A DNA stretch of 53,998 nt from the sequence record NC_079184.1; one strand, 5' to 3'. The notes beneath the pieces are model-generated. The model was not told the origin of the DNA, did no database searches, and saw only the letters and a list, made by a program, of their open reading frames with translations. Origin of the DNA: Escherichia phage vB_EcoM_DE15. Shown here piece after piece: positions 7,866 through 8,306 of the stretch (the stretch's first letter is position 1; each line of letters opens with the position of its first letter). Made by a program: the position numbers and the translations under genes.

Positions 7866-8306
7866 ATGCCAATCGTATTCGAAGGTAAGGCCAACGTATT
7901 TACTGTGGATGCACAAACTGTAACTTGTACTGTGAATGTTGTTGGTGTAATGGGTGCTGGTGTTGCAAAAGAGTACAAACGTCGCTACCCAGAGGCATTT
8001 AAGAACTACAGAACTGCGTGTAATCGTGGGTTCAAAACTGGACAATTGTTGCTGCAACGTCTTAATGATGGGCGTCTTGGACTATGTTTCCCAACAAAGC
8101 AACATTGGCAAAATCCTTCTCAACTTGAATGGATTGAGCAAGGTCTTATTAAGCTGGTGGAAACTTACAAGCGGTGTGGAATCACTTCACTTGCAATAAC
8201 CCCACTTGGTTGTGCAAATGGGCAGTTGGATTATGCTACTCAAGTTCGTCCACTTATGCTTAAATATTTAAATCAGTTGGATATTCCAGTATTCATCTGC
8301 AAATGA
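7866..8306 (+). CDS. Macro-domain protein (ADP-ribose binding/hydrolase fold), 146 aa
   Basis: Gly-rich loops NVVGVMGAGVA and ITPLGCANG are typical of macro domains. RBS GGAG. Has its own promoter. Confidence 0.7.
   Translation: MPIVFEGKANVFTVDAQTVTCTVNVVGVMGAGVAKEYKRRYPEAFKNYRTACNRGFKTGQLLLQRLNDGRLGLCFPTKQHWQNPSQLEWIEQGLIKLVETYKRCGITSLAITPLGCANGQLDYATQVRPLMLKYLNQLDIPVFICK

Follow-up and report, generated by a model that had tools for sequence, protein, structure and literature searches.

Escherichia phage vB_EcoM_DE15 (NC_079184.1), whose sequence of 53,998 nucleotides (nt) forms the window analysed here, carries on its + strand an open reading frame (ORF; 7866..8306, ATG start, TGA stop) for a macro-domain protein of 146 amino acids (aa). 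Our analysis indicates that this gene quite probably encodes an anti-DarT factor of the AdfM type, i.e. an orphan copy of the DarG2 catalytic macrodomain that comes with neither a DarT-binding domain nor a DarT gene. In DarTG2 systems, the toxin ADP-ribosylates thymidines in single-stranded DNA (ssDNA), and the macrodomain of DarG reverses this modification. Enzymatic activity of the window protein, thymine-linked ADP-ribose (T-ADPr) on ssDNA as its substrate, the timing of its expression and a protective phenotype are predictions drawn from its sequence, a structural model and the analogy with characterised systems. The AdfM class is already known, together with its mechanism, from publications of 2025–2026, and a specialist would now find the protein expected rather than surprising; new are the phage family in which it occurs and the cassette form of its gene.

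Assignment to the DarG-type macrodomains

An earlier note, made from the letters of the window, had described a stand-alone macro-domain protein with two glycine loops, and all elements of this description were confirmed. Both loops, VMGAGVA (residues 28–34) and LGCANG (residues 114–119), are contained in the translation, and the Pfam domain Macro (PF01661) is matched with E=1.5e-8 and 35 bits, above the cutoff of 22 bits. The PADLOC model of DarG is matched with 1.2e-44 and 151 bits (compared with 133 bits for AdfM of phage phiKZ and 36 bits for Tk.4 of phage T4), with an alignment restricted to the macro half of the model (positions 6–142 of 329). This partial match and the lack of a DarT-like ORF in the window agree with a protein that stands alone.

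The note had suggested HHpred or Foldseek as a means to assign the macro subfamily, and Foldseek placed DarG macrodomains first, with TARG1 far behind. For this comparison, an AlphaFold2 (AF2) model of the protein was built on 45 homologues (pLDDT 97.1, pTM 0.90). It shows a macro fold, in which helices enclose a mixed beta-sheet, with 182 PDB matches at E<=1e-3 that represent macro domains. The top four are DarG macrodomains (E ~1e-15, template-modelling (TM) score 0.86–0.92, root-mean-square deviation 1.5–2.5 Å, 33–39% identity), followed at lower ranks by TARG1 (1e-9) and by Poa1p, alphavirus and other macros (~1e-7). A sequence search against the PDB gave the same order, with the macrodomain of M. 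tuberculosis DarG (5M3I, E 2.6e-27) as the best match, the DarTG proteins of Thermosipho africanus (7OMU, 7.8e-25) and the DarG macrodomain of Thermus aquaticus (5M31/5M3E, 4.2e-22) next, and TARG1 (0.04) leading the other classes, among them Poa1p (E 0.16–0.3); what the DarG entries represent was verified separately. Judged by its sequence and predicted structure, the protein is clearly a DarG-type (DarTG2 antitoxin) macrodomain that lies nearer to DarG than to any other macro class.

Two other assignments were considered and rejected. A complete DarG antitoxin of a DarTG2 module does not fit a protein that ends at residue 146 and has neither a C-terminal DarT-binding domain nor a DarT neighbour. 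Membership in the MacroD/YmdB/Poa1p class was dismissed because Poa1p and other macros rank below both DarG and TARG1.

Existing annotations suggest a different function, namely that of a metabolic enzyme acting on free ADP-ribose derivatives, such as an Appr-1''-p phosphatase or an O-acetyl-ADP-ribose deacetylase. PHROG 335 bears the label 'phosphatase', GenBank uses the names 'Appr-1-p processing enzyme family' and 'phosphatase', and the JGI name is 'O-acetyl-ADP-ribose deacetylase (regulator of RNase III)'; in addition, structures of Poa1p are found among the weaker fold matches. However, such names derive from the generic annotation of macro domains, and Poa1p, MacroD-type and viral macros lie 7–8 orders of magnitude below DarG, with 14–21% identity. 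Moreover, the catalytic lysine within an FPTK motif and the linkage of the relatives to DarT, both described below, are features specific to the DarG/TARG1 group, and T4 Tk.4, which had likewise long been annotated as a 'phosphatase', proved to be an anti-DarTG2 factor. A metabolic role is thus highly improbable.

Conservation of the active site

In the DarG homolog of Thermus aquaticus (Taq DarG), K80 is the catalytic residue, with the K80A variant being inactive, whereas N22A represents the next most damaging mutation and W83 has been proposed to stack on the thymine base. Residues T79, H82, W83, G117, N120 and G121 line the pocket, and N8, T20, T79, G117, N120 and G121 contact the ADP-ribose moiety. 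In our alignment, K80, N22, W83 and H82 correspond to K78, N24, W81 and H80 of the window protein, and N8, T20, T79, G117, N120 and G121 to N10, T22, T77, G115, N118 and G119. The predicted active site comprises N24, K78 and W81, and two putative ADP-ribose-binding loops span G27–A34 and G115–G119. K78 is part of the sequence CFPTKQHW and matches K80 of Taq DarG (K84 of TARG1) in the FPTK motif. Among 45 diverse homologues, N24, G115 and G119 never vary, while conservation reaches at least 90% for T77, K78 and W81. Of the 150 best family representatives, 132 contain the motif PTKxxW. The earlier note had held that missing catalytic residues, together with a lack of binding or hydrolysis of ADP-ribose derivatives, would speak against its proposal; K78, N24 and W81 are all conserved. 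Comparison with the copy in the related phage TH37 yields a ratio of nonsynonymous to synonymous substitution rates (dN/dS) of 0.034 at a dS of 0.53, and the gene is under strong purifying selection.

Linkage of the cellular relatives to DarT

Cellular relatives were sought in one genome per prokaryotic species, and the best 80 loci, with 40–53% identity, were taken for closer inspection. After five neighbouring ORFs had been verified as Pfam DarT (PF14487), a DarT profile was searched against all ORFs of these loci. A DarT-domain ORF on the same strand is found in 69 of the 80 loci. It lies immediately downstream in 47 cases, immediately upstream, in the canonical DarT→DarG order, in 20, overlaps the macro gene in one and is located 873 nt away in another. 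No such ORF was found in the other 11 loci, three of which have incomplete flanks. The matches on plasmids are macro + DarT pairs annotated as such by NCBI. Since the relatives are linked to DarT, and since no DarT-like ORF was found in the window, which also yielded no second macro or NADAR-type ORF, the phage protein is an antitoxin macrodomain of the DarT-linked kind that occurs as an orphan.

Gene order is reversed in the 47 bacterial loci that are closest to the phage protein. Here, a macro protein of ~300 aa (~290–310 aa), whose C-terminal half has no match to the PADLOC DarG model, precedes a long DarT-domain protein of ~330 aa (~320–345 aa) that is extended at its C-terminus by ~120 aa. 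Examples are the loci of Butyrivibrio hungatei (L009, 3983-5873) and Hoeflea (L026, 3986-5859) as well as L016 (4004-5914), with 44 more among L008-L063. We found no description of this macro → long DarT layout in the literature. An identity with 'DarTG3/DarG3' was ruled out, because DarG3 is an ARH-type hydrolase in a helicase-containing system. The reversed-order operons may represent a distinct DarTG subtype.

Several observations weigh against the idea that the window protein is an anti-DarT factor directed at T-ADPr. Two positions differ from Taq DarG, with K29 replaced by A31 and G119 by A117, and both of them impair Taq DarG when changed to glutamate. These substitutions do not define whether a protein of the phage branch is active, because the active AdfM of phiKZ has alanine at both equivalent positions and because position 117 varies naturally, being glycine in TH37 and phiEco32 and alanine in the window protein and contig L097. 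Furthermore, TH37 alone among 44 GenBank relatives of the phage group carries the gene (96% aa identity), which is therefore dispensable in most settings. In an unbootstrapped neighbour-joining tree, the phage clade groups with the reversed-order operon set and joins neither the canonical set nor phiKZ AdfM, which falls outside, so that the target of the window protein could differ from the canonical T-ADPr product of DarT2. Finally, Taq DarG and TARG1-like macros also hydrolyse uracil-linked ADP-ribose (U-ADPr) on RNA.

The last two points would be explained by a DarG-like counter-defence hydrolase with another substrate, i.e. the product of a long DarT, U-ADPr on RNA or another modified base. 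The reversed order of the 47 closest bacterial loci speaks in favour of this possibility, as does the fact that new base specificities of DarT-type enzymes are still emerging, with cytidine as an example (PMC12945103). Yet, the gap in distance is small (mean 0.57 vs 0.61), the tree is devoid of support values, and Taq DarG processes U-ADPr less efficiently than T-ADPr. In addition, W81, the proposed thymine stacker, is conserved along with the entire DarG pocket, and the long DarTs still match the Pfam family 'ssDNA thymidine ADP-ribosyltransferase DarT'. On balance, we regard a deviating substrate as unlikely and favour an orphan DarG2 macrodomain that would act on T-ADPr in ssDNA.

A cassette of hairpins and a candidate promoter

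The macro gene is a self-contained cassette composed of a hairpin, a candidate promoter, a ribosome-binding site, the ORF and a second hairpin, with all elements on the + strand. Its upstream boundary is a hairpin at 7784..7824, which begins at the stop codon of the preceding 95-aa gene and whose RNA folds with -17.9 kcal/mol (z = -4.84; 0/200 shuffles fold as well). Its counterpart in phage SA91KD is annotated as a rho-independent terminator, and by its sequence it may be a terminator-like element or a processing site. The candidate promoter motif ATTAGTTGAATGTGA is found at 7829..7843, 23 nt 5' of the macro start and with one mismatch from the consensus ATTAGTTGGATGTGA, and a Shine-Dalgarno sequence, GGAG (7856–7859), is directly visible 6 nt 5' of the ATG. 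The downstream boundary is formed by a second hairpin at 8305..8342 (-18.0 kcal/mol, z = -4.83), which overlaps the macro stop codon and aligns with the hairpin 5' of the gene for the single-stranded-DNA-binding protein (SSB) in SA91KD and in phage Pel53. A scan for consensus intrinsic terminators across positions 6800–9000 found none; both cassette hairpins lack a T-run, and we therefore do not call them proven terminators. Sigma-70-like sites in the same interval occur at chance level (5 vs 4.7 expected).

At up to three mismatches, the consensus ATTAGTTGGATGTGA has 12 copies in the window, all on the + strand, starting at positions 570, 2696, 3673, 7829, 8345, 12346, 12487, 12624, 14251, 14583, 28291 and 43081, whereas dinucleotide-preserving shuffles contain 2.0 ± 1.6 copies and none of 100 reaches 12. 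Six copies deviate from the consensus by no more than one mismatch; of these, five are intergenic and lie 23–79 nt 5' of gene starts, and the one at 3673 overlaps an ORF of 58 aa and lies 468 nt upstream. Members of the family are mostly intergenic and often placed directly 3' of a hairpin, and one of them lies 68 nt 5' of the phage RNA polymerase gene. The copy at 8345..8359 (ATTAGTTGGATTTGA) is situated 74 nt 5' of the SSB gene, and its SA91KD counterpart is annotated as a promoter; more generally, motif copies coincide with SA91KD features annotated 'similar to promoter of phiEcoM-GJ1'. In TH37 as well as the distant contig L096, this motif likewise stands 5' of the macro gene. The promoters of Chaseviridae have not been identified, according to their ICTV profile, and this statistically supported family provides a concrete promoter candidate for experimental mapping in this group. 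The earlier note had stated that the macro gene has its own promoter-family site and is expressed from it: the site at 7829 and the family to which it belongs were borne out, while expression from this site is what we infer.

Phage context, distribution and a variable slot

The window represents a Carltongylesvirus-like member of the Chaseviridae, whose sequence around the locus shares 95.5% identity with that of phage ST32. Nearly all of its genes are on the + strand, and a gene for a single-subunit RNA polymerase is located at 652–2592. The macro gene sits in the early/middle region, directly 5' of the SSB and replication genes. Its neighbours are the gene for the 95-aa protein of unknown function on the 5' side and, on the 3' side, the SSB gene (8433..8810, + strand), which is outside the cassette, is homologous to the annotated SSB genes of ST32, SA91KD, Pel53 and flopper, and constitutes the conserved neighbour that defines a variable slot. 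The C-terminal part of SSB contains a low-complexity repeat rich in Gln and Ala (QQQ…AAQQQQ; 8676-8759), encoded by imperfect direct repeats of CAACAGCAA. Elsewhere in the window, a tandem duplication with a 282-nt unit and 77% identity between its copies is found in the structural-gene region (33399-33962), in or beside the ORF at 33415–33969.

The GC content of the macro gene (41.6%) is similar to that of its flanks (40–43%), and composition therefore gives no hint of a recent foreign origin. No copy of the gene was found at the DNA level across 5,426 complete E. coli genomes. The motif TNTC is mildly depleted in the window (obs/exp 0.87), a value to which we attach no interpretation.

Within the Carltongylesvirus-like phage group, the macro gene is accessory. 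Apart from the copy in TH37, there are 41 close matches, at ~80% identity, which all come from phiEco32-like Kuravirus podophages, in which the gene lies within an operon, without a motif of its own, and directly 5' of gp36, which encodes the ECF sigma factor of the phage, as exemplified by phi32_37 of phiEco32 (L003, 4001-4441). All phiEco32-like phages in GenBank, including the BASEL phages Bas90 and Bas91, have such a copy, annotated as hypothetical, 'phosphatase' or 'Appr-1-p processing enzyme'. Distant contigs of ~53 kb contain macro genes with 67–74% and SSB genes with 51–58% identity, one of them with the motif 35 nt upstream. In TH37, L096, L097 and L098, an SSB gene follows downstream of the macro gene, in TH37 and L096 as the next gene. 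Because these distant contigs share the macro–SSB arrangement, it is old in some lineages.

The slot between the 95-aa gene and SSB (7785-8433) is a hotspot that shows at least five states in Carltongylesvirus-like phages: the macro gene, a NADAR-like gene, two small ORFs (one of them DUF7279), a gene for a 173-aa, weakly DprA/SLOG-like protein in flopper, and no gene in 2KOFFS. The two small ORFs are found in SA91KD, whose homology to the window stops at 7775 and restarts at 8306. Equivalents of the slot are located at 2756-3197 of L001, 1642-2163 of L094 and 1586-1720 of L095.

T4 Alt, ModA and ModB ADP-ribosylate host proteins, and the macro protein could in principle reverse ADP-ribosylation by an ADP-ribosyltransferase of the phage itself and so regulate a modification that serves host takeover. 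Some homologues in Streptomyces phages indeed lie under features annotated 'ADP-ribosyltransferase'. However, the window, whose proteins were scanned for ADP-ribosyltransferase folds only in part, contains no DarT-like ORF, and no such enzyme is annotated in the carefully annotated SA91KD. Moreover, the gene is rare among the relatives, its slot can be empty, and no co-varying partner gene was identified. We therefore consider a role in the phage's own ADP-ribosylation cycle exceedingly improbable.

Replacement by a NADAR-like gene in a sister phage

In Pel53, homology to the window extends through the upstream hairpin and the motif to position 7859 and restarts at 8304, such that a different ORF of 160 aa (L002, 2867-3349) exactly replaces the macro ORF within the same cassette. 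The protein, annotated as DUF1768, has no Pfam match even at E<=10, a single-sequence PDB search with it returned nothing relevant, a locus search with the single protein retrieved one near-identical locus only, and the Pfam NADAR domain is found in none of its 120 best homologues. A profile of its family matched two sequences only in the PDB, both of them NADARs, with sub-significant E-values. With an AF2 model (pLDDT 94.6), by contrast, Foldseek matched only the NADAR proteins 8BAU, YbiA (2B3W) and 8BAT, the last of which is DarG1 of G. lovleyi, with probabilities of 0.96–1.0, the remaining matches being noise. Structure prediction thus points to a NADAR fold. By these comparisons, one shared cassette type appears to hold a hydrolase similar to DarG2 in some sister phages and one similar to DarG1 in others, and we take this swap as good circumstantial support for a role of the macro gene against DarT. 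It also provides a natural, near-isogenic phage pair for which different sensitivities to DarTG2 and DarTG1 are predicted and which is convenient for testing the prediction of host range from anti-defence gene content.

The family of the Pel53 protein comprises 562 GenBank phage records and 830 database clusters (PHROG 652, 'unknown function') and has no Pfam domain. Its invariant residues are H13, N15, G25, L28, G42, E48, A71, K72, K105, L121, H125 and Y127 (family alignment A4, with the members L002 2867-3349 from Pel53 and L087 1501-1980), and some members are fused to DUF4326 (PF14216). Based on the structural model, it probably constitutes an unrecognised branch of AdfN-like anti-DarTG1 factors. 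In the jumbo Erwinia phage Ea35-70 (L088, 998-2355), a DarG-like macro gene, Ea357_151, is followed 30 nt on by Ea357_152, encoding a 293-aa protein whose N-terminal half is of the Pel53 NADAR-like type and whose C-terminal half has a sub-threshold SLOG match (YAcAr PF10686, E 1.4e-4); judging from sequence, this gene pair looks like a two-gene anti-ADP-ribosylation module. The Pel53 record (PP952070.1) is labelled as a Staphylococcus hyicus phage, yet it shows 86% DNA identity to E. coli Chaseviridae across the locus, which makes the host label look doubtful.

Macro domains bind ADP-ribose derivatives, and the window protein might accordingly be a binder or degrader of an ADP-ribose-derived immune signal, as used by Thoeris-type systems, acting either as a sponge or as a signal-degrading enzyme. 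Its location in an accessory slot of an early region rich in anti-defence genes, with an antirestriction protein annotated nearby in SA91KD, would be compatible with such a function. However, the protein has no similarity to known signal sponges, its residues for DarG/TARG1-type glycohydrolysis are conserved under strong purifying selection, the genomic context of its relatives is DarT rather than TIR or ThsA, and its allelic alternative is a NADAR protein, i.e. a nucleic-acid base de-ADP-ribosylase. An immune-signal target is consequently very improbable.

A broader reading of the locus can be offered tentatively and with considerable doubt. The slot 5' of SSB might be a dedicated, modular anti-ADP-ribosylation locus whose cassette exchanges macro, divergent NADAR and possibly SLOG/DprA-like proteins, with a coliphage macro clade, made up of the Chaseviridae and Kuravirus proteins, that is tuned to the reversed-order systems rather than to canonical DarTG2. 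These 'short DarG → long DarT' operons may in turn differ in base or nucleic-acid specificity.

Proposed mechanism and implications

If the macro gene encodes an AdfM-type factor, infection of a DarTG2-type host would lead to the following sequence of events. The freed DarT toxin would ADP-ribosylate thymidines in phage ssDNA exposed at replication forks, thereby blocking phage replication, transcription or packaging. Produced from the early/middle region along with SSB and the replication proteins, the phage macrodomain would bind the ADP-ribose moiety via its two glycine-rich loops, and K78, aided by N24 and the base-stacking W81, would cleave the thymine–ribose bond and restore clean DNA. 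Since it lacks a DarT-binding domain, the protein should act purely enzymatically on the product; and because its point of attack would be the product rather than the toxin, activity against diverse DarT2 enzymes and indifference to the exact sequence of DarT can be expected.

The proposal of the earlier note that the protein is a plausible antidote to ADP-ribosylating defences gains support from its DarG subfamily, its active site, its DarT-linked relatives and its homology to phiKZ AdfM. The target, which the note had left open, with DarTG, CmdTAC and Thoeris as suggestions, can now be narrowed, as the evidence points to thymidine ADP-ribosylation of ssDNA by DarTG2-type systems. DarTG systems by which coliphages are restricted occur in strains of E. 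coli (PMC7003065).

With our analysis, a gene currently labelled 'hypothetical', 'phosphatase' or 'Appr-1-p processing enzyme' receives a functional assignment that is specific and testable, and so do its copies in ~41 Kuravirus records. In the literature library searched, no paper links the macro proteins of Chaseviridae or Kuravirus, or the phages Bas90 and Bas91, to DarTG2; these two phages represent ready experimental models for the macro gene. If the assignment is true, AdfM-type counter-defence reaches beyond T4 and the jumbo phages that form a nucleus and includes small and mid-sized coliphages, and such coliphages are under consideration for therapy and biocontrol. It does not open a new concept, and the parts most worth following up are the macro/NADAR swap and the reversed-order DarT systems.

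Comparison with known systems

Phage-encoded orphan hydrolases that neutralise DarTG have been published. The name AdfM was given twice independently, to T4 Tk.4 (10.1101/2025.11.20.689424) and to gp104 of phiKZ (PMC13309987). The latter removes ADP-ribose added by DarT2 from DNA in vitro, and its loss causes a drop of 3–6 log on DarTG2 hosts (PMC13309987). Like the window protein, phiKZ AdfM is a stand-alone DarG2-like macrodomain of a lytic phage that matches the macro half only of the PADLOC DarG profile. The two proteins share 38% identity over 139 aa (E 5e-34), N23 and K78 of phiKZ AdfM align with N24 and K78 of the window protein, and the GVMGAG and PLGCANG loops are common to both. However, phiKZ AdfM has 162 aa, lies outside the clade of the window protein in the tree, stems from a jumbo phage of 280 kb that forms a nucleus, into which the protein is imported (PMC13309987); in the literature consulted, the formation of this compartment is described for chimalliviruses only (PMC13309987). 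The window protein, by contrast, has 146 aa and is encoded by an accessory hairpin–promoter cassette in a 54-kb Chaseviridae phage.

Loss of T4 Tk.4 sensitises T4 to DarTG2 (10.1101/2025.11.20.689424). Similar to the window protein, Tk.4 is a stand-alone coliphage macrodomain that matches the macro half of the PADLOC DarG model. It was nevertheless rejected as a close relative, because there is no significant pairwise similarity between the two proteins (BLASTP E 0.008 over 38 aa). Tk.4 represents a separate macro lineage under the same name and probably an independent acquisition.

With the DarG macrodomains 5M31/5M3E, 5M3I and 7OMU, the window protein shares a closely similar fold, the catalytic Lys/Asn/Trp residues and the ADP-ribose-binding loops. 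Unlike DarG, it has alanine at positions 31 and 117, and it is encoded by a phage and presumably acts in trans on the product of a host toxin, without a C-terminal DarT-binding domain or a DarT neighbour. Human TARG1 (C6orf130), the second-best structural family, has the same type of catalytic-lysine macro mechanism and hydrolyses thymine-linked ADP-ribose, but it shows ~20% identity, lies at a Foldseek E-value of 1e-9 as opposed to 1e-15 for DarG, and also uses D125.

The NADAR-type factor AdfN (T4 30.3, Bas32 and Bas60) acts against DarTG1 (PMC11825919). Its fold is unrelated to the macro fold, and its substrate is the guanine-ADPr made by DarT1 rather than the thymine-ADPr made by DarT2. 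Despite these differences, AdfN resembles the proposed function of the window protein in that it is an orphan antitoxin-like hydrolase that erases the ADP-ribose attached by a DarT toxin, and a protein with a predicted NADAR fold occupies the very same cassette in Pel53.

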